Position numbers and translations under genes: made by a program. The notes beneath the pieces are model-generated. The model was not told the origin of the DNA, did no database searches, and was given only the letters and a program-made list of their open reading frames with translations. Below are positions 49,260 to 59,863 of a stretch of 64,000 bases of DNA, one piece after another. The DNA is from a virus (taxonomy: Duplodnaviria > Heunggongvirae > Uroviricota > Caudoviricetes): IMG/VR virus record IMGVR_UViG_3300013126_000013; one strand, 5' to 3'. Position 1 is the stretch's first letter; each line of letters starts with the position of its first letter.

Positions 49260-49263
49260 ATAT

Positions 49264-49353: not shown

Positions 49354-49357
49354 AATA

Positions 49358-49732: not shown

Positions 49733-49738
49733 TATTGT

Positions 49739-49815: not shown

Positions 49816-49816
49816 G

Positions 49817-50092
49817 TTATCTACGATTGTCTTTCAGTTGCTCGAGAACTCGTTTCGCCTTTTCACGAAACGCTGCATCAGTAACGGTATCAGAGTCAAC
49901 GTCATTGCGAAGAGTGTACTTGATGCCTTCGTACCGATACAGCGCTTCTTCCATCGCCGAAGCATGAAACTGAATCCGCTCAACTGTTGCTTTGAGCATC
50001 GAGAAATCGTACGTTTCTAACATCTTTCGAATAGTATCAAGTTCGGAACAAATGTAACGGTTCACATCAATTGTGTACGGTACTTTCGACAT
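49817..50092 (-). CDS. hypothetical protein (91 aa; start moved downstream of tRNA)
   Basis: GAGGATGAG RBS before MSKVPY. Confidence 0.4.
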   Translation of the reverse strand: MSKVPYTIDVNRYICSELDTIRKMLETYDFSMLKATVERIQFHASAMEEALYRYEGIKYTLRNDVDSDTVTDAAFREKAKRVLEQLKDNRR

Positions 50093-50117
50093 CTCATCCT
50101 CATTTTGATTTTGAATT

Positions 50118-50193
50118 GGTGCGGATAGAGGGACTCGAACCCCCAACATGCGCGTTCTAAGCGCGCCGACTCTACCAATTGGCCTATATCCGC
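50118..50193 (-). tRNA. tRNA, type-I body with anticodon UAG (Leu codon CUA) - atypical
   Basis: acceptor GCGGATA/TATCCGC A CCA; same D-arm as 49739..49815; perfect stem GCGCG/CGCGC, loop CTTAGAA. Confidence 0.5.
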
Positions 50194-50298
50194 GATATCT
50201 GGTCGGTTTTAAGTTATCCGAAAACTATCAACCCATACTATGCCCAAGCAGCTTGGAAGCCGGCTATCTATTCTCTGGTTGTCCGAACATTCGATCTT

Positions 50299-50374
50299 TG
50301 GTGCGGAATGAGAGGGTCGAACTCCCGACATCTTCGGTGTAAACGAAGCGCTACTACCACTGAGCTAATTCCGC
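50299..50374 (-). tRNA. tRNA-Val(UAC)
   Basis: GCGGAAT..loop TTTACAC..GGGAGTTCGACCCTCTC..ATTCCGC A CCA. Confidence 0.6.
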
Positions 50375-50538
50375 TTAAGTTTATTCCTCAAGTCATTCAG
50401 ACTTGTTTCTCTTTGCTGTGCTTCTACGTTAACCTTTGGTTCTTCGACATCATTATGAATGACTGCATTACCTTCAATTCGGCTTCGCAACTCAGCAATT
50501 CGTTTACGTAAAGAAGCAATTTCAGTTTGAAAATCCAT
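50365..50538 (-). CDS. small coiled-coil protein (57 aa)
   Basis: sub-threshold ORF, GGAGATG RBS; stop lies in tRNA-Val 5' end. Confidence 0.3.
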   Translation of the reverse strand: MDFQTEIASLRKRIAELRSRIEGNAVIHNDVEEPKVNVEAQQRETSLNDLRNKLKRN

Positions 50539-50552
50539 TGCATCTCCAATTT

Positions 50553-50626
50553 TGGCGACCTATGAGGGACTCGAACCCTCTTCACCCGGTGGACAGCCGA
50601 GCGTAATACCCATATACGAATAGGCC
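50553..50626 (-). tRNA. tRNA-Asp(GUC)
   Basis: GGCCTAT/ATAGGTC, loop CTGTCCA, GAGGGTTCGAGTCCCTC, CCA encoded. Confidence 0.55.
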
Positions 50627-50629
50627 AAT

Positions 50630-50669
50630 TCTTGTTTAATCTATACTATCTACTTGGTAGTGTCAACTA
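50630..50669 (-). promoter_or_regulatory. phage promoter (TTGACAT family)
   Basis: CTATACTATCTACTTGGTAGTGTCAACTAC. Confidence 0.5.
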
Positions 50670-50910
50670 CTTTTTTCAAGTAGTCGTAAGTTTCTTCATA
50701 AGTCTTAAAGACCTTCGTTCCATGCTTGCTCATGACTCTCACTGACGATCCAAAGCATTGAACACGTCCAAAACCTGGGTACCTACCGTTGCCAAGGAAT
50801 CGAGAGTTCCATCGGGTACGGCGACGTACAGGATCATGAAACAGATGAGGTATGCTAAGAATAGTGCTGCAATTTGCATAGAACTCTTCTTTCTCTTGAA
50901 TTGTTTTCAT
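50650..50910 (-). CDS. hypothetical protein (86 aa; start after tRNA)
   Basis: ORF; listed 110-aa ORF overlaps tRNA-Gly. Confidence 0.4.
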   Translation of the reverse strand: MKTIQEKEEFYANCSTILSIPHLFHDPVRRRTRWNSRFLGNGRYPGFGRVQCFGSSVRVMSKHGTKVFKTYEETYDYLKKVVDTTK

Positions 50911-50921
50911 ATTATACTTTC

Positions 50922-50996
50922 TGGAGCGGAGAATGGGGATCGAACCCACGACCATCTCGTTGGCAACGAGAAGCTCTACCACTGAGCTACCTCCGC
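50922..50996 (-). tRNA. tRNA-Gly(GCC)
   Basis: GCGGAGG TA GCTCAGTGGTAGAGC, loop TTGCCAA, GTGGGTTCGATCCCCAT, CCA encoded. Confidence 0.65.
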
Positions 50997-51002
50997 GTTA
51001 TT

Positions 51003-51041
51003 TGGTGGACCCTAGCGGGATCGAACCGCTAACTCCTAATT
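51003..51041 (-). pseudogene. tRNA 3' half (positions ~37-76 of a split tRNA-Ala-like gene)
   Basis: AATTAGGAGTTAGCGGTTCGATCCCGCTAGGGTCCACCA; acceptor 3' strand pairs with 5' half at 51668..51698 incl. G3:U70. Confidence 0.55.
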
Positions 51042-51617
51042 TATGGTGGAGGATAAGGGAGTCGAACCCTTGACTCTGCCTTGCAAGGGCAGCGTGTTCC
51101 CACTAGCACCAATCCCCCATTTGTCTTTTACTAATTCCTCAATCAAAGGAACTACTTCATTTGACCATTTACTATGAACCATTTCGTGATGATTTGGACA
51201 TAAGGGTATCAAATTTTTTGGTTCATTATTGTAATGATTTTCATCAATGTGATGAACCGCAACTACTTTATCAAATCCACAAATTGCACATTCACATTTC
51301 CAATTTTGAAATGCTATAGTTCTGTAGTGTGTAGCATTATCCTTCCACCATTCTTGCCTATTGTTTGCGCAAGACCTAGAGCAATAATACTTATCTTTCT
51401 GAGGATGAAGTTTTTCTCGTTCTGTTACTAAAAACTTATTAGAACAACATAAACATTCAACTTCAAATTCCTTTAATTCACCAAACTGACTAATAGTTCC
51501 TTGCGCTTTATTCCAATTATCCCTTTTAGGATTATGTTCACACCAACGACTATGATTAGCCTTTTCCGAAGTAGTTGAGAAATTAAACTCTATTTTGCAA
51601 TGTTTGCATTTCCACAT
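51036..51617 (-). mobile_element. HNH homing endonuclease gene with N-terminal Zn-finger
   Basis: CECAICGFDKVVAVHHIDENHYNNEPKNLIPLCPNHHEMVH; ORF 3' end reads through tRNA-Ala. Confidence 0.65.
51044..51118 (-). tRNA. tRNA-Ala(UGC) (intact; G3:U70)
   Basis: GGGGGAT..loop CTTGCAA..AAGGGTTCGACTCCCTT..ATCCTCC A CCA. Confidence 0.65.
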
Positions 51618-51667
51618 TCGAATTACCTCCTATTATGGAGTATTTATAATTCGCATATTTTCAGCAA

Positions 51668-51698
51668 ATCAGGCGCTCTCCCAACTGAGCTAAGAGCC
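51668..51698 (-). pseudogene. tRNA 5' half (acceptor + canonical D-arm + 5' anticodon stem) of split tRNA-Ala-like gene
   Basis: GGGCTCT TA GCTCAGTTGGGAGAGC G CCTGA TTTGC..; near-identical to E. coli tRNA-Ala(UGC) 5' half. Confidence 0.55.
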
Positions 51699-51702
51699 CG
51701 AA

Positions 51703-51725
51703 ACTATCTAGAGGGGACCTATTCC
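51703..51725. other. perfect 7-bp hairpin CTAGAGG-9nt-CCTCTAG beside split tRNA half
   Basis: inverted repeat in sequence. Confidence 0.3.
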
Positions 51726-51812
51726 TCTAGCAGGTAGATGATGCGTGATCGCCTCAACGAGTCAGGTCGAGAACTCTCAGCAGTGATCAGTGGGATCATC
51801 TACAATATTGGC

Positions 51813-51900
51813 AGAGAGCGGGTGGTATCGAACCCCAACCGGGTACTAGCCGGTCCACTAGTTTTCAAGACTAGGCTGCAGACCTCTGCAGATCACTCTC
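51813..51900 (-). tRNA. tRNA-Ser(UGA), type II (weak T-stem)
   Basis: GAGAGTG, D-stem CTGC/GCAG, perfect stem CTAGT/ACTAG loop CTTGAAA, long variable arm; CCA not encoded. Confidence 0.45.
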
Positions 51901-51908
51901 CATGGAAT

Positions 51909-51983
51909 TGGCACCAGTGGAAGGAATCGAACCCTCTACGCGCGGTTTTGGAGACCGCCGCTCTACCACTGAGCTACACCGAT
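51909..51983 (-). tRNA. tRNA-Trp(CCA), second copy
   Basis: ATCGGTG TA GCTCAGTGGTAGAGC, stem GCGGT/ACCGC loop CTCCAAA, GAGGGTTCGATTCCTTC, CCA encoded. Confidence 0.55.
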
Positions 51984-52051
51984 ATAAAATTTCAGCCGGT
52001 GAATTCTTTTGTACGTGCGGCCGGATCCGTCACAATTTCTGACTAAAGACA

Positions 52052-52124
52052 AAACTGTAATAGGGATCGAACCCATATCTCCCCGCCGTTCCGCAAGGCG
52101 TGCTATCCATTGCACCATACAGTC
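52052..52124 (-). tRNA. tRNA-like gene, anticodon arm non-canonical (8-nt loop or 6-bp stem); anticodon unresolved
   Basis: acceptor GACTGTA/TACAGTT, D-arm GTGCAATGGATAGCAC, T-arm ATGGGTTCGATCCCTAT. Confidence 0.35.
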
Positions 52125-52338
52125 TACTAGTTCGCTTTCTCGGCAAAGACTGCTACTGTAGTTCTCTAGTCAAGGCAATTGCCGCTGCCTATATAAATTC
52201 CTGGGCATCTCGCAATTGGGACTCTTACCCCTGCATCCAAGCTATGACTCAGACCGTGTTTCCCGATACGCCGAGTAGCCCTGTGGCGTATGTAGTGTTC
52301 TCATTGTAGTAGATGTCGACCTCTTCTACAACGTTTTA
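52125..52338 (-). ncRNA. ~210-nt non-coding spacer within tRNA cluster (candidate stable RNA)
   Basis: no ORF/tRNA; GGCAATTGCC palindrome. Confidence 0.25.
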
Positions 52339-52412
52339 TTGGTGCTCCTGGAATGAGTCGAACATTCGTAAGCAGGCTTCGTAGACCCGCCACCGGATCC
52401 GCCGGCAGAAGC
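52339..52412 (-). tRNA. tRNA-Arg(ACG)-like with compact D-region
   Basis: acceptor GCTTCTG/CAGGAGC A CCA, loop CTACGAA, perfect T-arm GAATGTTCGACTCATTC; D region CCGGCGGATCCGG. Confidence 0.45.
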
Positions 52413-52413
52413 G

Positions 52414-52719
52414 TTATGGCATATAAAGACCTTCGATCTGTGGATCAACAATCATTTCAGGCATGTCATCAATCCAAACATCGATATTAATCTTGTGAAC
52501 GTGAAGCATAAAGTCTCGTTTAGGGCGTAGGCCTGTTCCGAAGCAATTCTCAGCACCGATGATACGACCAATAGTATACTTGGGATCATCCATGTGTTGA
52601 ATGCCACGAGCAGATACACAGTAAACTTTATGTCCACGGTCAAGAGCTTGTTGTGCGAACCAATTCCACAACAGTGGATCTTTGGTGTAGGTGTCATCGT
52701 AGTCAATCGAGATATTCAT
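52414..52719 (-). CDS. hypothetical protein (101 aa; start after internal promoter)
   Basis: GAGGAG RBS before MNISIDYDD. Confidence 0.45.
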   Translation of the reverse strand: MNISIDYDDTYTKDPLLWNWFAQQALDRGHKVYCVSARGIQHMDDPKYTIGRIIGAENCFGTGLRPKRDFMLHVHKINIDVWIDDMPEMIVDPQIEGLYMP

Positions 52720-52724
52720 CTTTT

Positions 52725-52769
52725 TCTCCTCTACACCATCATAATCTAAACTGTTCCACATGTCAACCT
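52725..52769 (-). promoter_or_regulatory. phage promoter (TTGACA-17-TATGAT)
   Basis: revcomp GTTGACATGTGGAACAGTTTAGATTATGAT. Confidence 0.6.
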
Positions 52770-52774
52770 CTAAA

Positions 52775-52848
52775 TGGTGCTGCTAGAAAGAATCGAACTT
52801 TCTTCTCATCCGTACCAAGGACGTATAATACCAGTATACTATAGCAGC
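52775..52848 (-). tRNA. tRNA-Thr(GGU)
   Basis: GCTGCTA/TAGCAGC, loop TTGGTAC, AAAGTTCGATTCTTTC, CCA encoded. Confidence 0.6.
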
Positions 52849-52853
52849 GTTAT

Positions 52854-52927
52854 TGGTGTTCCCACCAGGAATCGAGCCTGGGCCTTCTCCGTGTCGAGGA
52901 GATGAGCTTCCATTACACCATGGGAAC
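52854..52927 (-). tRNA. tRNA (anticodon GAC, Val?) with irregular D-stem
   Basis: GTTCCCA/TGGGAAC A CCA, stem TCTCC/GGAGA loop TCGACAC, T-arm CCAGGCTCGATTCCTGG. Confidence 0.4.
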
Positions 52928-52932
52928 ATTGT

Positions 52933-53010
52933 TGGTGCGGCCACCGGGAATCGAACCCGGTTCTCAAGCTTGAGAGGCCGGCGACCATCGCCAAGTAGTC
53001 CTACGCGAGT
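52933..53010 (-). pseudogene. tRNA-like 3' fragment containing perfect palindrome TCTCAAGCTTGAGA
   Basis: good T-arm CCGGGTTCGATTCCCGG + TGGCCGC A CCA, but no complementary 5' acceptor strand. Confidence 0.4.
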
Positions 53011-53088
53011 TGGTACAGCGTACGGGTATCGAACCCGTCATCTCCGAATTGAAAGTACGGCGACCACCCCATCTAGTCCGACGCTGCA
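53011..53088 (-). tRNA. tRNA-Glu(UUC)
   Basis: GCAGCGT/ACGCTGT A CCA, loop CTTTCAA, ACGGGTTCGATACCCGT. Confidence 0.55.
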
Positions 53089-53146
53089 TAAATTTCAGGG
53101 GCATGATTGCTTTGAAATGCCGAAGCCCAGCGGCATTGGGGTTTAT

Positions 53147-53234
53147 TGGTGGGAGTGAAGGGAATCGAACCCAACATGCGTTACCGCGACAGATTTACAG
53201 TCTGCTGCCTCACCTTGAGGCGTCACTCCCAAAC
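53147..53234 (-). tRNA. tRNA-Tyr(GUA), type II
   Basis: GGGAGTG/CACTCCC A CCA, loop CTGTAAA, variable arm CGCGGTAACGCA. Confidence 0.55.
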
Positions 53235-53239
53235 TTGGT

Positions 53240-53310
53240 AGCGCCAGATGGACTCGAACCATCCCTACGGGCTTATGAGACCCATGTCAGCACCTGCTGT
53301 GTCGCCATAA
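53240..53310 (-). tRNA. tRNA-Met(CAU), initiator-like (GGG:CCC anticodon stem, acceptor mismatch)
   Basis: stem TGGGT/GCCCG, loop CTCATAA, GATGGTTCGAGTCCATC, TGGCGCT A CCA. Confidence 0.5.
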
Positions 53311-53316
53311 TTTGGT

Positions 53317-53390
53317 GTTCCTACAAGGTAACGATCCTTGGTCTCTCGCTTATCAGGCGAACGCTCTACCTTTGAGCTATAGGAACATGT
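53317..53390 (-). tRNA. tRNA-Ile(GAU)
   Basis: GTTCCTA TA GCTCAAAGGTAGAGC, loop CTGATAA, T-loop ATCGTTA, TAGGAAC A CCA. Confidence 0.6.
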
Positions 53391-53392
53391 TA

Positions 53393-53433
53393 ATCTAACA
53401 CTATACTAATTGAAGACGAATGTCAACAACTAT
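53393..53433 (-). promoter_or_regulatory. phage promoter (TTGACAT family)
   Basis: CACTATACTAATTGAAGACGAATGTCAACAAC. Confidence 0.55.
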
Positions 53434-53454
53434 TTTCATAGTACTTAATTTGGT

Positions 53455-53530
53455 GCACTTGGAGAGAATCGAACTCCCGACACCAGGATCTTCAATCCCG
53501 TGCTCTACCGTCTGAGCTACAAGTGCGTTA
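53455..53530 (-). tRNA. tRNA-Phe(GAA)
   Basis: GCACTTG TA GCTCAGACGGTAGAGC A CGGGA TTGAAGA TCCTG..GGGAGTTCGATTCTCTC CAAGTGC A CCA. Confidence 0.7.
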
Positions 53531-53535
53531 TTGGT

Positions 53536-53605
53536 CAGGATGGCGGGAATCGAACCCACGCCGGAAGCTTCCAAGGCCGCCACGCTACCACTACGCTACA
53601 TCCTG
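53536..53605 (-). pseudogene. tRNA-like gene with anticodon arm replaced by palindrome GGAAGCTTCC
   Basis: perfect acceptor CAGGATG/CATCCTG A CCA, D-arm and T-arm present; no 5-7-5 anticodon stem-loop can be drawn. Confidence 0.4.
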
Positions 53606-53680
53606 TTTATGAGTTTGGCTCTACCTCCTCGTAGGCGACTTAGCTACACTTCAAGTTTGCAGTACCGTGAATGTGTTTTG

Positions 53681-53760
53681 CTCGGTCGGCTGGGATCGAA
53701 CCAGCGCCATATTGGGTCTCCGGTTAACAGCCGGGCGCATTACCACTCTGCCACGACCGA
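53681..53760 (-). tRNA. tRNA (anticodon GUU?, extended variable region)
   Basis: perfect acceptor TCGGTCG/CGACCGA, loop CTGTTAA in CCGG stem, T-arm GCTGGTTCGATCCCAGC; CCA not encoded. Confidence 0.4.
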
Positions 53761-53777
53761 GCAAAACACACTTTATT

Positions 53778-53853
53778 TGGCTGCCCCTCGTGGACTCGAA
53801 CCACGGTTTCCTGTTTCAGAGACAGGCGTCCTACCGGCATAGACGAAGGGGCA
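53778..53853 (-). tRNA. tRNA-Gln(CUG)
   Basis: TGCCCCT/AGGGGCA G CCA, perfect stem CCTGT/ACAGG loop CTCTGAA, CGTGGTTCGAGTCCACG. Confidence 0.65.
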
Positions 53854-53860
53854 AAAGTAT

Positions 53861-53935
53861 TGGCTGGGAAGGGTGGATTCGAACCACCGGCCTGCTGATT
53901 CAAAGTCAGTTATTCTACCACTGAACTACTTCCCA
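53861..53935 (-). tRNA. tRNA-Gln(UUG)
   Basis: TGGGAAG/CTTCCCA G CCA, loop CTTTGAA, GGTGGTTCGAATCCACC. Confidence 0.65.
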
Positions 53936-53941
53936 ACATTT

Positions 53942-54016
53942 TGGTCCTGACGGTTGGTTACGATCCAACTCTACCGAGTCCACAGCTCAGCGTGCTACCA
54001 TTATCACTACATCAGG
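53942..54016 (-). tRNA. tRNA-His(GUG)
   Basis: CCTGATG/CGTCAGG A CCA, loop CTGTGGA, GTTGGATCGTAACCAAC. Confidence 0.55.
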
Positions 54017-54022
54017 ATATTC

Positions 54023-54097
54023 TGGTGTACCGGGTGGGGATCGAACCCACGACTTACGGATTAAGAGTCCGCCGTTCTACCGCTGAACTACCGGTGC
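54023..54097 (-). tRNA. tRNA-Lys(CUU)
   Basis: GTTCAGCGGTAGAAC D-arm, stem GCGGA/TCCGT loop CTCTTAA, GTGGGTTCGATCCCCAC, CCA encoded. Confidence 0.6.
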
Positions 54098-54201
54098 ATT
54101 ACTTAGAAGATACACTACAACGGATTCGCACCGTCTCCCCTTTCATTCCGCAGAAACCGCCTACTGACGCTTGGGTGCCTACTAGTGTATCATCAAAGTA
54201 A

Positions 54202-54240
54202 TGGTGAATCCGGTCAGACTCGAACTGACGTATTCCGATT
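54202..54240 (-). pseudogene. tRNA 3' half (T-arm + acceptor 3' strand + CCA) of a split tRNA
   Basis: TCGGA ATAC GTCAGTTCGAGTCTGAC CGGATTC A CCA; pairs 7/7 with 5' half at 55051..55088. Confidence 0.5.
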
Positions 54241-54245
54241 AATCT

Positions 54246-54329
54246 TGGTGAACGGGGTGAGATTCGAACTCACGAAGCTAGTGCGACTGATTAAAAGTCA
54301 GTTCCCTTTGTCCACTTGGGTACCCGTCC
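54246..54329 (-). tRNA. tRNA-Lys(UUU) (12-nt variable region)
   Basis: GGACGGG/CCCGTTC A CCA, perfect stem ACTGA/TCAGT loop CTTTTAA, GTGAGTTCGAATCTCAC. Confidence 0.55.
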
Positions 54330-55017
54330 GTATATCTTCCATTACAGAATCAATATAAGCTTTTCTATCTTGTTTGTCAACTAATTTTTTGTAGTCAGAC
54401 CATTTTATCCGTATTATTTTCCACCCAAGATTTTCAAGATATTGATTTCTTCTTTTGTCACTCTCTATAATGCGGTCATCTAAGTAATGTTGATCACCAT
54501 CTATTTCAATGTCAATCTTTTTTTCAACTAAAGCAAAGTCAAGTTGATAGGTGTGTATTTGATATTGCTCAACATAGTTTAAACTTACTTTATCAAAAAT
54601 TTTCTTCCAGTATCTTTCTGGATATGATAGGCCTTTGCTATAATGATTTAGTTTATATGGTACCATATCTGGGTTTTCAGAAAGAAATTTTCTCCTAGAA
54701 TTGGAAATTTTGTTTTTAGTTTCTTGGGTATGCTTTCGTCCGACATTAGCGTTACGCAATTTAATTATTGTTTGTTCAGATCTAATAGGTTTTGGTAAGC
54801 CTAATTTATTAGCTTTTGTATATTGGTTTTCACCCTTATATCCAGGTTTCCTACCAGATTTCGATTTAGGCTTAGGAAAGGGATTGCTTACACAACGATT
54901 TTCATGTGCTTTATTTGCACCAGGATTAGTAGTTTCTCTGCCACAAAATTGGCAAATAAATAGTTTCATGCTGGAAATCTCCGTTTGTGTTTCTAGAGTA
55001 GGTAGATGTTGGCGCAT
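54298..55017 (-). mobile_element. homing-endonuclease-like gene: N-terminal Zn-finger + C-terminal Vsr/DUF559-like (PD-(D/E)xK) nuclease domain
   Basis: CQFCGRETTNPGANKAHENRC; ..DFALVEKKIDIEIDGDQHYL..; 3' end overlaps tRNA-Lys(UUU). Confidence 0.5.
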
Positions 55018-55050
55018 CGTGACCTACATTATTATTTATACAAACAAAGA

Positions 55051-55088
55051 TTTTAGTCGGGTGCTAAAACCACCTCAGCTACGGATCC
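55051..55088 (-). pseudogene. tRNA 5' half of the split tRNA whose 3' half is 54202..54240
   Basis: GGATCCG TA GCTGAGGTGGTTTTAGC A CCCGA CTAAAA.. Confidence 0.5.
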
Positions 55089-55218
55089 ACTCTTTGCGAA
55101 GCGCCATCTTATCGTTACGGCGTTCCACTTTCTTAGTCTTTCCATGCGCACCAGAAGGACGTTTGGAAAGATGAAGGACGAAAGGATTTCGTGCCTTCGG
55201 GAGTTCCTTATGTTTCAT
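55078..55218 (-). CDS. small basic peptide (46 aa) directly after promoter; stop inside tRNA 5' half
   Basis: AGGAAAGGGAA RBS; MKHKELPKARNPFVLHLSKRPSGAHGKTKKVERR.. Confidence 0.3.
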
Positions 55219-55232
55219 TTCCCTTTCCTCGT

Positions 55233-55273
55233 TACTTACTCAGTTATAAACAGTCTTTTCAGAATGTCAACAA
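55233..55273 (-). promoter_or_regulatory. phage promoter (TTGACAT family)
   Basis: TTATAAACAGTCTTTTCAGAATGTCAACAAC. Confidence 0.55.
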
Positions 55274-55300
55274 CTATTTTCGTTTTCCATAAATATTTTT

Positions 55301-55789
55301 ATGAAATATCTTATTCTCATATTCGCCCTTGCCGGCTGTTCGAACAATATGTTCTTGAGCCGTGTCATACCACCAGTTGAGCCGGTAGATACTGCTGCAT
55401 CTATGATTGGCCTACATGAAAAAACCTCAAGAAAAGAGATTCGCAAATTCATAGGTCTCGACCCAGTTAGGTATCAATGGTGTGCAGCATTTGTCAACTC
55501 GGTACTTCACTATCATGATATTCCTGGGTCTGAAACCGTAAGCCGCCATCCGCTTCTTGCAAGAAGCTTTTTGAAGTGGGGTGAGCCGGTTCAAGAGCCA
55601 GAGTTCGGAGATATCGTAATATTTACTCGAAACAACAATAACTGGCAAGGTCACGTTGGTTTCTATATAGAGTCTGCTATCGTAGATGGTGTCCCAAGCT
55701 ACATTGTGTTAGGTGGAAACCAAGACGATGAGATTAAGTACAAAGCGTACCCAACATCAAGATTGCTTGGAATCCGAAGAATACCTTGA
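55301..55789 (+). CDS. NlpC/P60-like (TIGR02594-type) cysteine peptidase lipoprotein
   Basis: lipobox LAGC; YQWCAAFVNSVLH..GDIVIFTR..GHVGFY Cys/His motifs. Confidence 0.45.
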   Translation: MKYLILIFALAGCSNNMFLSRVIPPVEPVDTAASMIGLHEKTSRKEIRKFIGLDPVRYQWCAAFVNSVLHYHDIPGSETVSRHPLLARSFLKWGEPVQEPEFGDIVIFTRNNNNWQGHVGFYIESAIVDGVPSYIVLGGNQDDEIKYKAYPTSRLLGIRRIP

Positions 55790-55802
55790 TTCTGTTTTCA
55801 AC

Positions 55803-55882
55803 TGCACAATCACGAATCGAACGTGTTTTCTTGTCACTGACTATATAGTCCACTACCCAGTAGCTACAATGGGTTATTGTGC
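55803..55882 (-). pseudogene. tRNA-like gene with anticodon arm replaced by palindrome GACTATATAGTC
   Basis: perfect acceptor GCACAAT/ATTGTGC, D-stem CCCA/TGGG, T-arm CACGTTCGATTCGTG. Confidence 0.4.
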
Positions 55883-55991
55883 ATGTGAAAACAGAATCGC
55901 TTCTGTTTCCAGTTCCATCATCGGGCCTCCCCTAGGAACAAAGCTTAAATTTTCAATGAGCTGGGATGATTGATACGATCTCTTCGATCCC

Positions 55992-56031
55992 GAGTTTTTC
56001 TTCTATATTAGATCGACACGAATGTCAACCG
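55992..56031 (-). promoter_or_regulatory. phage promoter (TTGACAT family)
   Basis: TTCTATATTAGATCGACACGAATGTCAACCG. Confidence 0.55.
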
Positions 56032-56036
56032 TTATT

Positions 56037-56118
56037 TTGGAGGTGAGTGTCAGAATCGAACTGACTACTTGCGTGCTTCGGATTTGCAATCCGACCCCTT
56101 ACCATCCGGGCCACTCAC
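56037..56118 (-). tRNA. tRNA-Cys(GCA) (13-nt variable region)
   Basis: GGTGAGT/ACTCACC T CCA, perfect stem TCGGA/TCCGA loop TTGCAAA, GTCAGTTCGATTCTGAC. Confidence 0.55.
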
Positions 56119-56121
56119 CGA

Positions 56122-56165
56122 ATAAGAAACCCCTCCAGACCTTTCGATCGGAGGGGTTGGTTTTC
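56122..56165. terminator. GC-rich 9-bp hairpin with T-runs on both strands (bidirectional terminator-like)
   Basis: AACCCCTCC-13nt-GGAGGGGTTGGTTTTCTT. Confidence 0.4.
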
Positions 56166-56350
56166 TTGAACCATGTACTCTAGCTTGTTAGCTGTTGTAC
56201 CCCCTCATGTTCATAATATTAAGTTCTTCACAACGCACGGTAAAGCGATAGCCAGGCTGTGCCTGCATATGCTTTGAGACTGATGCGATAGTGGGTTTCA
56301 TTGAAGGATAGTTCCTGTTAGTTTGTTTCTTATACTATTTATACACTGAT
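56166..56350 (-). ncRNA. ~190-nt non-coding segment between promoter and hairpin (candidate small RNA)
   Basis: no ORF/tRNA; bounded by promoter 56360 and hairpin 56165. Confidence 0.3.
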
Positions 56351-56368
56351 TCTTGATGATGTCAACAA
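56328..56368 (-). promoter_or_regulatory. phage promoter (TTGACAT family)
   Basis: TTATACTATTTATACACTGATTCTTGATGATGTCAACAAAAAAG. Confidence 0.55.
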
Positions 56369-56393
56369 AAAAGTGTAAGTTTTTGAAAATAAT

Positions 56394-56834
56394 TTAGATG
56401 AAAGCTTTGAGCATCCAGCGGTGCTTTTCATGAGCAGCGATACGATCCTCGATGAAGTTCACAACACCTGCTTGTTCGAGTTGGTCTGCAATTGTACGAA
56501 CTTCATATAGCGTCGTAATGACTACATCATTATCGCGAGCAAGGCGAGCAAACATAAGAGGAGGTTCTGGAATCATAAGCTCATCTTCGATTCGGCTCAG
56601 CTCCTTGAAGCGAGACAACGAACCTGGAGCAAACGATCCTGCAATACGAATCATTTCTGCGATGTCGTCAATAGAACCGTCAACCTCTTCGTAGAAGTCA
56701 CCGAAGAACTCGTGGTACTGGGCAAAGTTTGGCCCAGTCACGTTCCAATGATAGTTCTGGGCTTTGATCGAAAGCCCATACACTGTTCCAAGTAGAACCT
56801 TCAATGCTTCTGCAATTTGATCCATGATACTCAT
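56394..56834 (-). CDS. dps: Dps-like ferritin-fold protein
   Basis: HWNVTGPNFAQYHEFFGDFYEEV..IAEMI ferroxidase-centre pattern. Confidence 0.7.
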   Translation of the reverse strand: MSIMDQIAEALKVLLGTVYGLSIKAQNYHWNVTGPNFAQYHEFFGDFYEEVDGSIDDIAEMIRIAGSFAPGSLSRFKELSRIEDELMIPEPPLMFARLARDNDVVITTLYEVRTIADQLEQAGVVNFIEDRIAAHEKHRWMLKAFI

Positions 56835-56865
56835 CCTTTGTTATTGTTCTTGAGTATTTATACTA

Positions 56866-56904
56866 TGGTGCTCCCGCAGGGATTCGAACCTACGATCAAG
56901 ACGG
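56866..56904 (-). pseudogene. tRNA 3' half (degenerate T-stem) of a split Cys(GCA)-like tRNA
   Basis: CGTCT TGATC GTAGGTTCGAATCCCTG CGGGAGC A CCA; pairs with 5' half 57547..57584. Confidence 0.5.
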
Positions 56905-56977
56905 TAGTTCCCCAGAGACTCGAACTCTGACCTGAAGCGTTATGAGCGCTTAGTGCTGACCTTTACACCAGAGAACC
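56905..56977 (-). tRNA. tRNA-Met(CAU) (elongator or Ile-lysidine type)
   Basis: GGTTCTC/GGGAACT A, perfect stem AAGCG/CGCTT loop CTCATAA, perfect T-arm CAGAGTTCGAGTCTCTG. Confidence 0.6.
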
Positions 56978-57490
56978 ACTTTTTTGTTTCTTCTTTCTCC
57001 AAATTTCGCGAAGATGCTCTTTACGTTCTTCTGAAAGTGGAGCACGTTTTTGGCCTTTGTTTGCCAACCCACCTTTGCGACCAACTTCTTTAGCAGATTC
57101 ACTGTTCCACACTTTTCCGGCTTTTACTGCACCAGCACCACCTGCCAATGAGCGTTTGTGCTGACCGTTTATATAACCTTTGTGTGCAGCTTCTTTGCTG
57201 AAACCACCGTGACCAGTTTCTTCTCGAAAGTTGGCCCACTCTTTAGATTCAACGATGTTGAAAAGTTTGCTAAAGAATATAGCAGTTTCTTTGAACTCGG
57301 CTTCATCTTCAGTAGCCAAAAGAATCTGAGTATCTAGGTTTAAGCCGTGTTCTTTCAGATGTCTTTTCCAATATAGACCTGATCCATTATAGCACATTGG
57401 GTCTCTTATGGTTTTGCCGAGATACTTTAATCCTGTCGTACGATGGGTTTTAACGTACAAATAAATAGTCATGCTGGAATTCCCTTTCAT
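56963..57490 (-). mobile_element. GIY-YIG homing endonuclease gene
   Basis: MTIYLYVKTHRTTGLKYLGKT GIY-YIG; 3' end overlaps tRNA-Met. Confidence 0.7.
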
Positions 57491-57546
57491 TCTAGAGTTA
57501 GTGGACGTTGGCCCGGCGCGACTAACACTATTTATATGATCAAGAA

Positions 57547-57584
57547 TTTGCAGCGCCCAGCTCTAACCGCTGAGCTACAGGAGC
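57547..57584 (-). pseudogene. tRNA 5' half (acceptor, canonical D-arm, anticodon stem + loop CTGCAAA) of split tRNA
   Basis: GCTCCTG TA GCTCAGCGGTTAGAGC T GGGCG CTGCAAA. Confidence 0.5.
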
Positions 57585-57684
57585 AGATTGGTAGAAGTGC
57601 TGGGTTACGCTCCCAGTCGAGAACAGTCATCTACTGCTGAAGGGTTTATAAGGCCCTCTTGCGTCTAACGCCCACTTCCATAAT

Positions 57685-57729
57685 TGGTGTCCCCGGTCGG
57701 ACTCGAACCGACACTGAGATGTAAAATTA
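57685..57729 (-). pseudogene. tRNA 3' fragment (T-arm + acceptor 3' strand + CCA)
   Basis: GTCGGTTCGAGTCCGAC CGGGGAC A CCA with no local 5' strand; possible partner 5' half at 59189..59226. Confidence 0.4.
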
Positions 57730-57737
57730 TATAAATA

Positions 57738-57820
57738 GTGGTAGGCATGGTCGGACTCGAACCGACACGGATTAACCAGCGAATTTTAAGTCCGCCGCGG
57801 CTACCATTTCGCCACACGCC
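57738..57820 (-). tRNA. tRNA-Leu(UAA), type II
   Basis: GGGCGTG/CATGCCT A CCA, stem GCGGA/TTCGC loop CTTAAAA, variable arm TGGTTAATCCG, GTCGGTTCGAGTCCGAC. Confidence 0.55.
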
Positions 57821-57835
57821 CATGGAGATATTTAT

Positions 57836-58429
57836 ATGATTCCTAAGAAAATACTAACACAGTTCAAACTAACTGTCAACTATAATTGTTCAAAATGTAA
57901 TATTTCTTCTTGGTTAGAAAATAAGATTACATTAGAAGTTGACCACATTGATGGTGACAACACTAATCATAGCTTATCAAATCTAAGATATCTTTGCCCG
58001 AATTGTCACAGCCAGACAGATACGTGGAGAGGTCGAAACAAAAATACTGGAAAGGTAAAAGTTTCGGATGAAGAACTATTGAGTGCTATTCATGAAACTG
58101 CAAATATAAGACAGGCTCTCATTAAAGTAGGATTGTCTCCTAGAGGACCAAACTATAACAGAGTTTCAAAGTTGTTAAATACATATGAAATAGACTTCAA
58201 AAATTCTCAATATAATACTGTTTGGATAAATGATGGAACACTCAACAAAAAAGTTAAACATGAAGTATTAAATGAATATTTAGCTACTGGATATAAGATT
58301 GGTAGAATTGGAATTACTCAACCATCAGTTAAAGGAAAGGTATGGGTAACTAATGGAATTATTAATAAAATGTGCAACCCAGACTCTATTCCAGATGGAT
58401 TTTGGAGAGGAAAATTCCACAGAAATTAA
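57836..58429 (+). mobile_element. HNH homing endonuclease gene
   Basis: LEVDHIDGDNTNHSLSNLRYLCPNCHSQTD HNH motif; plus strand. Confidence 0.65.
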
Positions 58430-58454
58430 GTGTCCTGCCTTTGGCCTACGAGGA

Positions 58455-59117
58455 CTATATCGTAAAATTTTCACATTTTTTTAACGTGTCTATTATCTCG
58501 ATATTTTTATATTGTTTAAGTAATATTTTTAATTTTTTATCTTGTACTTTGGCCGCATGTGGATTTTTAGGATCAATATATCTATTATACTTTGGAAGGT
58601 AAAAATCTGGAAAGTAATTATGAATTATTCCATTTTCATCAATCCATGGTAAGGGATCGGGCCTAATCCACTCTATATTTAACTCATCTAATCTTTTAGC
58701 TAAAGCTAATTCCCAAGACGAATCTAATAAAATTCCTTTGTACTCAACAACACCTTTTCTCAATCTTCTATGGGTAGATGCTAAAGCTTTCTCTTTTATT
58801 AGGAGTTTACTTTTTTCAGTATGCCTTTTACCAGTCGATGCGACTCTTTGTTTTTCTCTTGTTGCTTCAGATACAATAGCACCATAAGTGAATTGATTAT
58901 TAAAATTCCTTTTTGCTGATCTAGCTTTAATTAGATCTTTGTTATAAGAATCTTTTTTTGGGTTTTCTGAACACCATCTACTATGATTCGCCATCCATCC
59001 CTTAGATTTATCGGATATATCGAATTCTTTCTGACAGTGTTTACATATTCCCTTATTCACTAAAATACTCCTATATGGAAGCCCCTGGAGGAATCGAACC
59101 TCGTACCGTCCATCCAC
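58455..59117 (-). mobile_element. Zn-finger + PD-(D/E)xK homing-endonuclease-like gene (paralog of 7345..8040)
   Basis: CKHCQKEF..ANHSRWC Zn-finger shared with 51036 HNH; NYFPDFYLPKYN PD motif. Confidence 0.5.
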
Positions 59118-59159
59118 CTTTAAGGACTCGTTTAGAAGACGAGGAGTGGGGCAGGAGCC
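59076..59159 (-). tRNA. tRNA-like gene, anticodon UCU (Arg) candidate, atypical (no room for D-arm, long variable region)
   Basis: GGCTCCT/AGGGGCT T CCA, perfect stem CTCGT/ACGAG loop CTTCTAA, T-arm CGAGGTTCGATTCCTCC. Confidence 0.35.
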
Positions 59160-59188
59160 TTGATATAAAAGTATTTATAGTTTTGTAA

Positions 59189-59226
59189 ATTTAGGCAGTT
59201 GCTCTATCCAACTGAGCTACGGAAGC
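59189..59226 (-). pseudogene. tRNA 5' half (acceptor + canonical D-arm + 5' anticodon stem)
   Basis: GCTTCCG TA GCTCAGTTGGATAGAGC A ACTGC CTAAATT; no adjacent 3' half. Confidence 0.45.
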
Positions 59227-59233
59227 GTTATCT

Positions 59234-59641
59234 TTATTTGTAGAAGTCAAACGAATAGGTTTGACCATTCTGTTTGAAAGTAATGGTACTGTGTGAATAC
59301 ACTTGTGTGCTTTCGTATCGGTATGTTGTTTCTTCCCAACACTTTTTACCGCCTTTATCAGCACCAATTACGCCTCCAATGACGGCACCGGCGGCGGCGC
59401 CTTTATCGTCACCAGTAACACCTTTGCCGATAATACCACCGATAATCATCCCAGCCAGAGCGTCACCACCTGCCGAACCATTGCGGCAAAATGTTTGAGT
59501 GATGGGAACACTGACTTCTTGCCATATGTAATGATCTTTAACCGTAGCCCGAACCGTATCGGCTGATGCTGATGTCGTAATGAGAGTTACTGCAATTGCT
59601 AGTACGATTTTCATTGACCGAGCCTTTCGTCCCAAAAGCAA
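59234..59641 (-). CDS. secreted glycine-zipper protein
   Basis: signal peptide; GMIIGGIIGKGVTGDDKGAAAGAVIGGVIG. Confidence 0.5.
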   Translation of the reverse strand: MLLGRKARSMKIVLAIAVTLITTSASADTVRATVKDHYIWQEVSVPITQTFCRNGSAGGDALAGMIIGGIIGKGVTGDDKGAAAGAVIGGVIGADKGGKKCWEETTYRYESTQVYSHSTITFKQNGQTYSFDFYK

Positions 59642-59661
59642 TATTTTTATTTATAGACGTT

Positions 59662-59862: not shown

Positions 59863-59863
59863 A

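Follow-up and report, generated by a model that had tools for sequence, protein, structure and literature searches.

A homing endonuclease gene cassette in the anticodon loop of a phage tRNA-Lys(UUU) gene appears to carry a replacement tRNA

Homing endonuclease genes (HEGs) normally enter essential genes only within a self-splicing intron or an intein, and free-standing HEGs are usually intergenic. The closest precedents for the locus described here are SegB of phage T4 and the protein genes fractured by free-standing HEGs. SegB makes its cut within tRNA genes of HEG-free relatives, and neighbouring tRNA genes spread along with it (PMC2330249, PMC13096335). The fractured genes include those of the Vsr-like/EDxHD family (Dassa et al. 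2009, PMC2677866; PMC3239194; Aeh1 nrdA-mobE cited there). I-Bth0305I is a dimer and recognises a 14-bp pseudo-palindrome (PMC3239194).

We analysed a 64,000-nucleotide stretch of viral DNA (Caudoviricetes; IMG/VR record IMGVR_UViG_3300013126_000013), referred to here as the window. A sequence-only reading had described a module of a tRNA 5' half, an HEG, an intact tRNA-Lys(UUU) and a tRNA 3' half, and all four elements were confirmed where it had placed them. Two minus-strand remnants, 55088-55055 and 54242-54202, come from a single tRNA-Lys(UUU) gene and are separated by an inserted cassette of 812 bp (54243..55054, minus strand), which has no counterpart in related phages and whose boundaries were taken from the allele alignment. 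The 5' remnant (55055..55088, minus strand; GGATCCGTAGCTGAGGTGGTTTTAGCACCCGACT) comprises the 5' strand of the acceptor stem, the D arm, the 5' strand of the anticodon stem, C32 and U33. The reading had extended this half to 55051; the half is present, but it ends with C32-U33 at 55055, and the trailing AAAA is insert sequence. The 3' remnant (54202..54242, minus strand; TTAATCGGAATACGTCAGTTCGAGTCTGACCGGATTCACCA) comprises the loop residues TTAA, the 3' strand of the anticodon stem, the variable loop, the T arm, the 3' strand of the acceptor stem, A73 and CCA. It is indeed close to the intact tRNA (hereafter the cargo), but seven rather than six nucleotides separate the CCA of the cargo from TCGGA, and four of the seven, TTAA, belong to the anticodon loop of the split gene. 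Downstream of the 5' half the sequence continues with AAAATCTTTG..., and immediately before the 3' half stand the CCA of the cargo and AGA, the insert ending in ...CCAAGA. At the junction, six of the seven nucleotides of the anticodon loop CTTTTAA are left, and one T is gone.

The identity of the split gene was supported by several comparisons. The acceptor strands of the halves can pair 7/7, as had been proposed. Four of the five proposed CCCGA/TCGGA pairs are formed, but C27-A43 is a mismatch, which is also present in every intact allele. The two halves joined with one T gave a tRNA 71/76 identical to the gene of a related phage contig (L014), and ARAGORN called the rejoined gene tRNA-Lys(ttt). 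In a random-join control, random 34-mers attached to the real 3' half yielded any tRNA in only 2 of 3000 cases. Covariance-model support was obtained for the 3' half alone, as a 5'-truncated Rfam tRNA match (19.8 bits, E=0.027), but the 5' half alone had no tRNA match in Rfam and only one weak match, to an antisense tRNA-like plastid UTR model. The 5' half was therefore validated through relatives: L014 and 18 metagenome contigs share its sequence exactly over nucleotides 1-28 of their intact gene. The 3' remnant also agrees with the intact alleles of L014 and the metagenome contigs.

In L014 and 18 of 19 metagenome contigs, the same tRNA-Lys(UUU) gene stands between the same flanks without interruption, the intact alleles having been retrieved with a query of the T arm and acceptor strand and with a query of the 5' part. 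These alleles bear out the view that the pattern is no coincidence. The blastn match between the window and L014 stops at 55061 and restarts at 54242. Relative to the HEG-free relatives, the HEG and the tRNA together are a single 812-bp indel within the tRNA-Lys(UUU) gene, which supports the earlier suggestion that these HEGs target tRNA genes. Occupied alleles were found only in the window and in the remaining metagenome contig (L088), which matched the window at 100% in three HEG proteins. The site is thus polymorphic for presence and absence of the insert among close relatives, as is a mobile free-standing HEG. In L014 and the 18 metagenome contigs, 19 intact-gene contigs in all, the conserved downstream flank follows directly after the tRNA, with no second copy adjoining.

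The intact allele carries, for example, ...AGCACCCGACTTTTAATCGGAGTACGTCAG..., and the type found in L083 and L085 carries ...GCACCCGACTTTTAATCGGAGTACGTCAG.... An exact search of viral contigs for the predicted intact allele CACCCGACTNNNAATCGGAATAC gave no match; the intact alleles have GTAC, not ATAC, after the stem. Five differences from L014 are clustered in the anticodon stem and were first taken as a donor-derived co-conversion tract. This was rejected because 11 intact metagenome alleles have the same CCCGA/TCGGA stem, and the stem of the rejoined gene is that of the commonest intact allele. The left flank is marked by a conserved, syntenic 47-aa ORF (55075..55218, minus strand), whose stop codon lies within the D arm of the tRNA-Lys 5' part. 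A resemblance of this ORF to ArfA-like rescue factors was dropped because it had no family match in Pfam or NCBIfam, even with permissive thresholds. A nucleotide search of the locus against GenBank phages gave generic tRNA matches only and no close cultured relative, and the nearest proteins, at about 30% identity, were in T4-like cyanophages.

The cargo tRNA-Lys(UUU) (54246..54329, minus strand; ARAGORN and Rfam) is 84 nt long, has an extended variable region and is the sole intact tRNA-Lys(UUU) in the tRNA array. It scored 56.3 bits against Rfam RF00005, for which the gathering score is 29, and it folds as a cloverleaf. Among 13 cargo homologues, the CTTTTAA loop was invariant and compensatory changes were found in 16 of 17 pairs. 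The cargo tRNA looks functional. It has a UUU anticodon and A73 and is predicted to be charged with lysine; however, its D arm and 12-nt variable region look class-II-like. In sequence, the cargo diverges strongly from the split gene, with differences in the D, variable and T arms and in the acceptor stem. The central TGACTTTTAATCA is common to the cargo and the intact L014 allele; a core site present in both cargo and target cannot explain the putative immunity of the cargo.

The HEG ORF (54298..55017, minus strand) contains a putative C2HC zinc finger, a possible NUMOD3-like motif and a Vsr-like/EDxHD nuclease domain. Its probable start is the ATG at 54969 (MKLFICQFCGR), with GGAG 10 nt upstream, giving a protein of 223 aa. 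In Pfam, MTES_1575 (4e-11) and DUF559 (4e-10) matched over their cut-offs and RAP matched at about 1e-10, while NUMOD3 fell just below its cut-off (E=1.1e-3; 19.3 vs 20.4 bits). In NCBIfam, DUF559 gave 2e-7 but 31.1 bits against a curated cut-off of 218 bits, and the vsr match was weak. The zinc-finger-like motif, C-x2-C-x12-H-x3-C, was recognised by eye only. Residues 113-199 matched PDB 3r3p, the catalytic domain of I-Bth0305I ("mobile intron protein"), with E=3e-4. In 10 homologues at 30-62% identity, D160, E171, D173, D175 and H177 (QLDFA...EIDGDQHY) were invariant; these residues include putative equivalents of Asp51, His69 and Asp97 of Vsr. The C-terminal domain is thus homologous to Vsr and I-Bth0305I, and the catalytic acidic/histidine motif (E, D, H, D) of the EDxHD family appears to be conserved. 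At the left end of the cassette lies the T4-type late-promoter-like motif TATAAATA (55033..55040, minus strand), which by T4 biology is a putative late promoter. This motif occurs 22 times in the window against 1.8 expected and stands upstream of each of the six HEG ORFs there; it is also conserved upstream of HEG homologues in L001-L006, L012, L015, L022 and L055.

In our judgement it is highly probable that a free-standing HEG cassette was inserted right after U33 in the anticodon loop of tRNA-Lys(UUU) in a T4-like environmental phage, and that its own isoacceptor replaces what was lost. The cassette would consist of the late promoter, the EDxHD/Vsr-like HEG and its own tRNA-Lys(UUU). The endonuclease is predicted to cut HEG-free tRNA-Lys(UUU) alleles within the anticodon loop or close beside it; the anticodon arm, a natural pseudo-palindrome of the form GA-T---A-TC, would suit a dimeric EDxHD enzyme. 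Repair of the break would use an occupied genome as template and so copy in the cassette, and of the interrupted gene only two stubs, one 5' and one 3', would remain, unable to make a tRNA. The cassette isoacceptor, whose gene would be resistant to the nuclease, would supply the lost function, so that the insertion would cost the phage little. Neutrality would be reached through replacement, as against splicing for introns and inteins. The Lys locus may thus represent a third solution for HEGs, which is to break the gene and bring a spare.

Like SegB, a GIY-YIG enzyme, the Lys HEG is a free-standing phage HEG in the tRNA array of a T4-like phage, in a late-promoter context. Unlike it, the Lys HEG has an EDxHD/Vsr-like fold and a junction at U33 of the anticodon loop, whereas SegB recognises a T-psi-C stem-loop motif and sits between tRNA genes. 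SegB has not been reported inside a tRNA gene, leaving both halves, or paired with an isoacceptor of the destroyed gene. With the fractured genes, the Lys cassette shares the HEG family (the PDB 3r3p match), the placement of the HEG between two collinear pieces, HEG control elements of its own and an occurrence mainly in environmental phages. However, the fractured targets are protein genes, rescued by split inteins or by assembly of two polypeptides, whereas at the Lys locus the target is a tRNA gene, the pieces are apparently dead and the rescue would come from a second complete gene in the insert. A full-text literature search, which turned up SegB, the fractured genes and I-Bth0305I, found no description of anticodon-loop HEG cassettes with isoacceptor cargo, which is absence of evidence only.

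Two further systems were compared. In integrase insertion, a phage or ICE whose attP holds a copy of the tRNA 3' end keeps the tRNA intact and leaves a partial copy at the other end. The Lys element likewise brings tRNA sequence, keeps an intact tRNA and leaves a partial one. Unlike integrase insertion, it involves no integrase or att recombination, carries a whole divergent isoacceptor rather than an identical 3' segment, and presumably spreads by double-strand-break repair. In ClvR/toxin-antidote drives, which are synthetic, RNA-guided and used in diploid eukaryotes, a nuclease destroys a needed resident gene and the element carries a working copy. The logic of the Lys cassette would be the same, with the resistance of the cargo and the cost of tRNA-Lys(UUU) loss in the phage both putative.

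Similar cassettes were found at other loci in the window. The Ala locus (51003..51699, minus strand) has the same architecture, as the sequence-only reading had noted. Its tRNA-Ala(UGC) gene is split after C36 into a 5' part (51699-51664, through C36) and a 3' part (51041-51003) by a 622-bp insert (51663-51042) with TATAAATA, a zinc-finger/HNH ORF (51617-51036) and a cargo tRNA-Ala(UGC) (51118-51044). Intact tRNA-Ala(UGC) alleles with the same acceptor, D and T arms as the halves were found in L072-L075. The Met and Leu(UAA) loci, and probably the Arg(UCU) locus, repeat the pattern. At the Met locus (56866..57584, minus strand), a 5' part to C32-U33 (57584-57552) is followed by TATAAATA, a GIY-YIG ORF (57490-56963) identified as a homing endonuclease by PHROG, a cargo tRNA-Met(CAU) (56977-56903) and a shortened 3' remnant (56902-56866) with a mutated T stem. 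The blastn match to L014 stops at 57558 and restarts at 56890. Direct repeats flank two cassettes, AATC on both sides of the Lys cassette and TCTTGATC on both sides of the Met cassette. These repeats are too short or too isolated to indicate target-site duplication and were set aside.

The fourth case is a composite (57685..59226, minus strand). It begins with a tRNA-Arg(UCU) 5' part to C32-U33 (59226-59193), TATAAATA and a tRNA-like element with a UCU loop, continues with a zinc-finger/PD-(D/E)XK-like ORF (about 59060-58455) and an inverted HNH ORF (57836-58429, plus strand), and ends with a cargo tRNA-Leu(UAA) (57821-57739) and a tRNA-Leu(UAA) 3' part (57720-57685). The Arg(UCU) and Leu(UAA) genes are intact and adjacent in L014, and the alignment stops at 59199 and restarts at 57715. 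The cargo anticodon equals that of the split gene at the Lys, Ala, Met and Leu(UAA) loci and possibly also at Arg(UCU), which makes four to five cassettes in the window. The Arg tRNA-like element (59159-59076) was rejected as functional cargo, having no D arm and a fold no better than that of shuffled sequence. The window also holds duplicated specificities, with two each of Pro(UGG), Trp and Asn.

The cassette also occurs outside this group of phages. In phage L015, a homologous junction, promoter, ORF (about 78% nucleotide identity) and cargo tRNA (92% identical, with compensatory T-stem changes) lie between tRNA-Lys halves of a different sequence (GGACCAT...) and amid flanks without homology to those of the window, so the same element occurs in unrelated genomic backgrounds. 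The proposal that the HEG travels with a neighbouring tRNA was right in that a tRNA moves along, but this is not any neighbour; its anticodon is that of the destroyed gene. HEG homologues were found at 57 viral loci. At 33 of the 36 viral loci with at least 43% HEG identity, a tRNA-Lys(UUU) lay no more than 130 nt away on the same strand, and more distant HEG clades adjoin Asn(GUU), Lys(CUU) or Ser tRNAs. In the window and 12 other loci (L015, L001, L002, L004, L005, L006, L020, L022, L030, L052, L026 and L040), the HEG stop overlaps the cargo start by 0-32 nt or lies within 3 nt of it. Orphan 5' halves ending in ...CT(T) just before TATAAATA were found in L001, L002, L004, L005, L012, L015, L020, L022 and L055, and 3' remnants with an acceptor strand that pairs with the 5' half were found in L001, L012, L015 and L020.

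The layout of the cassette is not uniform, since in about half of the homologous loci the tRNA-Lys(UUU) precedes the HEG and no 5' half is obvious. Some neighbouring tRNAs may therefore be targets rather than cargo. In addition, 3' remnants are frequently absent, which indicates that the right-hand junction is variable; illegitimate joining, recombination within the cargo and later deletion are alternative causes. Both features would be expected if the tRNA were a passive hitch-hiker in intronless homing, that is, if an ordinary free-standing HEG beside the donor's tRNA-Lys, as with segB, were copied together with this tRNA, and the halves were accidental repair scars between diverged genomes with no design of replacement. 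SegB behaves exactly so for tRNA clusters (PMC2330249). However, in about ten loci with all-different 5' halves, the left junction is positioned after U33, and a homologous leader and TATAAATA come next, which argues for a site-specific insertion inherited with the element and not for random scars. Moreover, the ORF stop lies inside or abuts the tRNA in more than 12 loci, and in the window the target gene encloses the whole HEG and tRNA, and its two halves are essentially complete. We consider passive hitch-hiking unlikely, and its difference from the cut-and-replace explanation is mainly one of emphasis.

The halves could also be read as parts of a tRNA that is restored at the RNA level, by a self-splicing group I or group II intron with an HEG or as a functional split tRNA joined or assembled by a phage RNA ligase or as in Nanoarchaeum equitans. 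In N. equitans, the halves are likewise separated close to the anticodon loop, with acceptor strands that can pair; they are separately transcribed, carry complementary leaders, are joined by a splicing endonuclease and ligase and are essential. The Lys halves are undamaged and could pair in the acceptor stem (7/7) and the anticodon stem (4/5). Unlike those of N. equitans, however, they have no complementary leader or trailer in the sequences adjoining either half, their loop lacks a nucleotide and most alleles in the population are intact. Anticodon loops of bacterial and cyanobacterial tRNA genes do host group I introns, one of them with a PD-(D/E)XK HEG (I-Ssp6803I; cited in PMC2677866), and the Lys cassette resembles these in placing a restriction-enzyme-fold HEG in the anticodon loop. 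Such introns restore the tRNA by self-splicing, whereas the Lys cassette has no detectable ribozyme and one loop nucleotide has been lost. Sensitive Rfam scans gave no intron family (45000-60000 at E<=1; 54200-55095 at E<=10), with the caveat that ORF-containing introns can escape the models. A leader of 37-85 nt, the ORF and the complete tRNA fill the insert and leave no space for a ribozyme core, and the insert ends in AGA after the cargo CCA, not in the 3'-terminal G of a group I intron. Exact joining would not rebuild the UUU anticodon loop, 3' parts are truncated or absent at sister and related loci, as in the Met remnant, and an intact isoacceptor lies within the insert. The intron reading was rejected on the Rfam scans and the junction sequences, and restoration as RNA in any form is very improbable. 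Because one loop nucleotide is gone and the 3' halves are shortened or absent at related loci, the Lys halves appear to be inactive remnants, and "split tRNA" does not here mean a functional split gene. Least probable of all is a local tandem duplication of tRNA-Lys(UUU) with HEG insertion in one copy, or an HEG-induced segmental amplification, for although SegB-driven amplification of tRNA segments is documented (PMC13096335) and the window has the duplicated specificities given above, the intact tRNA lies inside the interrupted gene and not beside it, differs greatly from it in sequence, has its closest relative in the unrelated contig L015, and has no adjoining counterpart in the 19 intact-gene contigs.

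The cut-and-replace explanation could be extended further, although we hold the extension only tentatively and regard it as somewhat doubtful. Phage tRNA arrays might host widespread elements of this kind, with HEGs of EDxHD, HNH, GIY-YIG and PD-(D/E)XK folds that have leader and zinc-finger modules in common. Each HEG would be dedicated to the anticodon loop of a single tRNA species and joined to a nuclease-resistant isoacceptor, and the elements would act as cleave-and-rescue drives. They would then be a main engine of phage tRNA turnover, horizontal spread and structural oddity, such as a tRNA-Lys(UUU) with a class-II-like variable arm. At the least, cassettes of the Lys type would explain the orphan tRNA halves or "pseudo-tRNAs" of phage arrays, which are a nuisance in annotation and are open to confusion with split or permuted tRNAs. 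They would also offer a concrete mechanism for tRNA gene swaps between unrelated phages. Such swapping matters because phage tRNAs are now regarded as counter-defence cargo against anticodon nucleases.

The HEG family may in addition provide an EDxHD clade whose natural target is predictable and highly conserved, the predicted one being the tRNA-Lys(UUU) anticodon arm. Specificity studies or engineering could make use of relatives apparently retargeted to Asn, Lys(CUU) and Ser. Finally, the last 32 nt of the HEG ORF overlap the cargo tRNA, which places the HEG stop codon within the 5' end of the tRNA. This arrangement, which is conserved, suggests a coupling of tRNA processing with HEG expression; if so, cleavage by RNase P would yield a non-stop HEG mRNA.

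On the minus strand of the window, a resident tRNA-Lys gene is divided into two pieces. The 5' piece (55088-55055; GGATCCG TA GCTGAGGTGGTTTTAGC A CCCGA CT) comprises the acceptor 5' strand, the D arm, the anticodon-stem 5' strand, and C32-U33. It is followed by the leader AAAATCTTTGTTTG, the promoter motif TATAAATA (55040-55033), and a homing endonuclease gene (HEG; 55017-54298), whose probable start codon is the ATG at 54969 (MKLFICQFCGR...), with GGAG 10 nt upstream. The final 32 nt of this ORF overlap the 5' end of an intact 84-nt tRNA-Lys(UUU) (54329-54246), which was called by both ARAGORN and Rfam and is referred to here as the cargo tRNA. AGA lies between the cargo tRNA and the 3' piece (54242-54202; TTAA TCGGA ATAC GTCAG TTCGAGT CTGAC CGGATTC A CCA). 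The sequence-only reading described these elements correctly, apart from small boundary details: the AAAA with which it ended the 5' half is not tRNA sequence, and the spacer before TCGGA is 7 nt rather than 6 nt, including four loop residues.

The 3' piece alone matched Rfam as a 5'-truncated tRNA (19.8 bits, E = 0.027), and the 5' piece alone gave no tRNA match in Rfam. When the two pieces were joined with a single T, ARAGORN called tRNA-Lys(ttt); with random 34-mers in place of the 5' piece, only 2 of 3,000 joins gave any tRNA. The decisive test that the Lys halves exceed chance is the comparison with relatives. With the T arm and acceptor strand as the query, a search of viral contigs identified a HEG-free relative (L014) with 84 to 97% identity to the window across long collinear blocks. 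At the syntenic position, L014 carries a single uninterrupted tRNA-Lys(UUU), with the same small ORF upstream and the same ttactttgatgatacact downstream, and the rebuilt tRNA-Lys of the window is identical to this gene at 71 of 76 positions. In the split gene, one T of the CTTTTAA loop is lost and G44 is an A. A metagenome scan with the 5' piece as the query yielded 19 contigs, 18 of which contained an intact tRNA-Lys, with anticodon stems of CCCGA/TCGGA as in the window (11 contigs), CGCGA/TCGCA (6 contigs), or CGTGA/TCACA as in L014 (1 contig). The remaining contig (L088) was occupied, and its three HEG proteins were 100% identical to those of the window. The insert boundaries, 55054-54243 (812 bp), were therefore taken from the intact alleles. 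These results confirmed the previously proposed split-tRNA module as an insertion polymorphism, and the halves are scars, not a working split tRNA. Because the occupied allele is infrequent and the halves are undamaged, the data indicate a recent invasion of this lineage.

Intron models gave no match across the Lys region, and the insert is filled by the leader, the ORF, and the tRNA. The motif TATAAATA, the T4 late-promoter consensus, occurs in 22 copies in the window versus 1.8 expected and lies upstream of every HEG ORF of the tRNA array; this abundance and placement fit the T4-like, cyanophage-related gene content. The cargo tRNA, the only intact tRNA-Lys(UUU) of the array, has a cloverleaf fold, and its 12-nt variable region forms a small additional hairpin. 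Among tRNAs at the equivalent position in other phages (n = 13), CTTTTAA was invariant and compensatory changes were found in 16 of 17 stem pairs; selection maintains these genes as tRNAs. The cargo tRNA and the intact L014 allele have the same central TGACTTTTAATCA. Most cargo tRNAs have noncanonical D arms, and 6 of the 13 have extended variable regions; we speculate that these features might disturb the outer contacts of an approximately 60-bp footprint, thereby allowing escape from cleavage. Because the HEG stop codon lies within the cargo tRNA, RNase P processing would sever it from the HEG mRNA and may thereby restrain expression of the HEG. In addition, a conserved basic 47-aa ORF (MKHKELPKARNPFVLHLSKRPSGAHGKTKKVERRNDKMALRKEWIRS; 55218-55075, minus strand), present in L014 and metagenome relatives and without a family match, has its last codons and stop within the acceptor stem and D arm of the tRNA-Lys 5' piece; RNase P processing of intact alleles would therefore remove that stop.

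The HEG ORF is intact. Its C-terminal domain matched MTES_1575, DUF559, and RAP in Pfam above the cut-offs (E about 1e-10), with NUMOD3 borderline, and the protein also matched the catalytic-domain crystal structure of I-Bth0305I (3r3p; E = 3e-4). In NCBIfam, the DUF559 match was below the model's curated cut-off and the vsr match was weaker still. Residues D160, E171, D173, D175, and H177 were invariant in an alignment of 10 sequences. On the basis of these domain matches and residues, the protein is a predicted member of the Vsr-like/EDxHD homing endonuclease family (PMC2677866, PMC3239194).

Next, viral contigs were searched with the HEG protein and then by alignment, yielding 57 loci. At 33 of the 36 loci with HEG identity of at least 43%, a tRNA-Lys(UUU) lay within 130 nt on the same strand. 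The tRNA starts inside or directly after the HEG stop codon at about half of the loci, as in the window, and 23 to 124 nt upstream of the HEG at the others; more distant HEG clades adjoin tRNA-Asn(GUU), tRNA-Lys(CUU), or tRNA-Ser instead. The closest HEG homologue (67% amino acid identity) is in another phage, L015, whose cassette homology starts at the junction (ACT(T)AAATCT...TTTGTATAAATAATA), with about 78% nucleotide identity in the ORF and 92% in the cargo tRNA, including compensatory T-stem changes. The halves around this cassette are not those of the window: the tRNA-Lys 5' half reads GGACCAT...GCGGA CT, and the 3' remnant, which is displaced, carries the acceptor strand that matches it (ATGGTTC). 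Orphan 5' halves ending in CT(T) precede the leader and TATAAATA in L001, L002, L004, L005, L020 (truncated), L022, L055 (Asn type), and L012 (another tRNA). L012 and L020 also have 3' remnants with complementary acceptor strands, as does L001, where only 11 nt are left. Thus, the left junction is constant and the right junction is variable or erased. The distribution of these loci marks a mobile unit linked to tRNA-Lys(UUU). In L012 (2925-3740), a 5' half ending in TT before GAAAT precedes a HEG whose N terminus is the same (38% identity) and whose nuclease domain differs, then a tRNA-like cargo (UU-AAA-AG loop) and the matching 3' remnant. In L055 (1420-2200), the Asn-type 5' half (U1) precedes a HEG and a tRNA-Asn(GUU) cargo.

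The same design recurs within the window. In the Ala case, GGGCTCT...CCTGA TTTGC is separated from AA TTAGG...AGGGTCC ACCA by a zinc-finger/HNH HEG and tRNA-Ala(UGC), and the same arms are found in uninterrupted tRNA-Ala(UGC) genes of four contigs (L072-L075). A GIY-YIG HEG and a tRNA-Met(CAU) interrupt the window's counterpart of the L014 tRNA-Met(CAU) after C32-U33; the 3' remnant of that counterpart is shortened, and the T-stem 5' strand is mutated. Where L014 has adjacent tRNA-Arg(UCU) and tRNA-Leu(UAA) genes, the window has a composite. In it, an Arg 5' half (ending in C32-U33) is followed by a zinc-finger/PD-(D/E)XK-like HEG, then by an HNH HEG in inverted orientation and a new tRNA-Leu(UAA), and finally by a Leu 3' half. 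Wherever the case is clear, the broken gene and the intact tRNA within the insert share their anticodon, and four such matches among about 27 anticodons in the array would be very unlikely by chance. Together with the homologous loci in other phages, these cases bear out the earlier argument that the recurrence is not coincidence. Because the U33 junction and similar leaders are common to three cassettes with different nuclease folds, and an N-terminal CxxC...HxxxC motif is common to the Lys, Arg, and Ala HEGs, their sequences suggest that nuclease domains are exchanged modularly on a common targeting and leader module. Between the promoter and HEG of the Arg cassette lies an element (59076-59159, minus strand) with a 7-bp acceptor-like stem, a T arm, CCA, a CU-UCU-AA anticodon loop, no D arm, and a 23-nt "variable" segment. 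Its folding did not set it apart from shuffled sequence, and it could represent a tRNA-Arg(UCU) cargo that is degenerate or unconventional. The Met cassette is flanked by the 8-nt direct repeat TCTTGATC (57537-57544 and 56894-56901, minus strand) and the Lys cassette by AATC (55048-55051 and 54237-54240, minus strand), which may be microhomologies or target-site duplications of the original insertions.

An anticodon arm is inherently an inverted repeat. I-Bth0305I acts as a dimer that reads a 14-bp pseudo-palindrome centered on its own cut (PMC3239194). The insertion polymorphism, its junctions, and the cassette content and conservation were observed here; from the known biology of the family (PMC3239194, PMC2330249), we infer that the endonuclease would cut HEG-free tRNA-Lys(UUU) genes in or beside the anticodon loop. 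During coinfection, the break would be repaired off an occupied genome, copying in the promoter, HEG, and tRNA and leaving the resident gene as two stubs. Because the cassette tRNA would preserve UUU decoding, selection against insertion would be weak. The variable right junctions suggest that right-side repair often resolves in or beyond the cargo tRNA or via microhomology, or that the 3' stub is soon deleted. We consider this account of insertion and replacement at the Lys locus likely. It supports the earlier idea that these HEGs target tRNA genes and travel with a tRNA, with the refinement that the halves are scars and the companion is a same-anticodon replacement.

The nearest functional precedent, T4 SegB, is likewise a HEG in a tRNA cluster that cuts tRNA genes and spreads with neighboring tRNAs (PMC2330249), but it targets a T-loop motif and sits between genes. 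The nearest architectural precedent, "fractured genes" or genes-in-pieces, includes the same HEG family; however, those are protein genes, and their rescue is by subunit assembly or split inteins. Group I introns of tRNA genes have the insertion site in common with the Lys cassette but achieve rescue by splicing, and tRNA-targeting integrases have the logic of bringing the tRNA sequence along in common with it. In a literature search, HEG cassettes in anticodon loops with an isoacceptor cargo were not found to have been described. Therefore, the protein was filed in the EDxHD family, and the arrangement as an apparently unreported variant form of free-standing HEG gene fracturing. This cut-and-replace arrangement is not categorically new but is a clean and recurrent strategy that is apparently undescribed, with practical consequences for phage tRNA-array annotation and for understanding phage tRNA gene movement.

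Several other elements were observed in the array (minus strand). ARAGORN did not call an unannotated tRNA at 51812-51902, in which the acceptor stem is 8 bp, the D stem 6 bp around a 4-nt loop, and the variable arm long. This architecture is tRNA-Sec-like, and the Rfam tRNA-Sec model scored 50.6 bits (gathering score, 47), but the anticodon reads UGA (for the serine codon UCA) instead of UCA; the gene may encode a serine tRNA resembling allo-tRNAs. For the tRNA-Ser(GGA) called at 49060-49147, too, the tRNA-Sec model gave the best score (42 bits). An unannotated cloverleaf at 49168-49258 (fold z-score, -3.0), between two called tRNA-Ser genes, has a CGA (Ser) anticodon, a long variable arm, and a short T stem (4 to 5 bp). 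A 73-nt tRNA-like gene at 52340-52412, 97% conserved in L014 (13757-13829) and without an ARAGORN or Rfam call, has a CU-ACG-AA loop (Arg ACG), a T arm, CCA, and an odd D region. Between it and tRNA-Thr(GGU) lies a 115-aa ORF (52414-52761; PHROG of unknown function) that is absent in L014. A mini tRNA-like element at 52937-52985 gave a weak match to the mascRNA model (27 bits); its parts are a GGCC/GGCC stem, the perfect TCTCAAG/CTTGAGA hairpin, a T arm, and GCACCA. The corresponding position in L014 is occupied by about 215 nt of unrelated sequence. The ARAGORN "tRNA-???" at 52051-52125, with a 4-nt anticodon (gaac), a poor anticodon stem, no CCA, and 41 bits in Rfam, is probably a decaying or unusual tRNA. 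A further tRNA 5' fragment (CACCAGG TG ACTCAGACGGGAGAGT A CGTCA), in the region 47993-48160, is separated by 10 nt from the tRNA-Pro(UGG) downstream of it (48125-48051); TATAAATA and a GIY-YIG HEG (47993-47358) follow this tRNA. The Pro-Trp-Asn block (48051-48402) duplicates specificities that the array also has at other places, which points to a further HEG-borne import. The genome also encodes a CHASE2-sensor adenylate/guanylate cyclase (44212-46212, plus strand) and, on the minus strand, a CCA-adding-enzyme-like protein with PolyA_pol and HD domains (19373-20638), NAMPT (34022-35449), and, inside the tRNA array, a Dps/ferritin-like protein (56394-56834).
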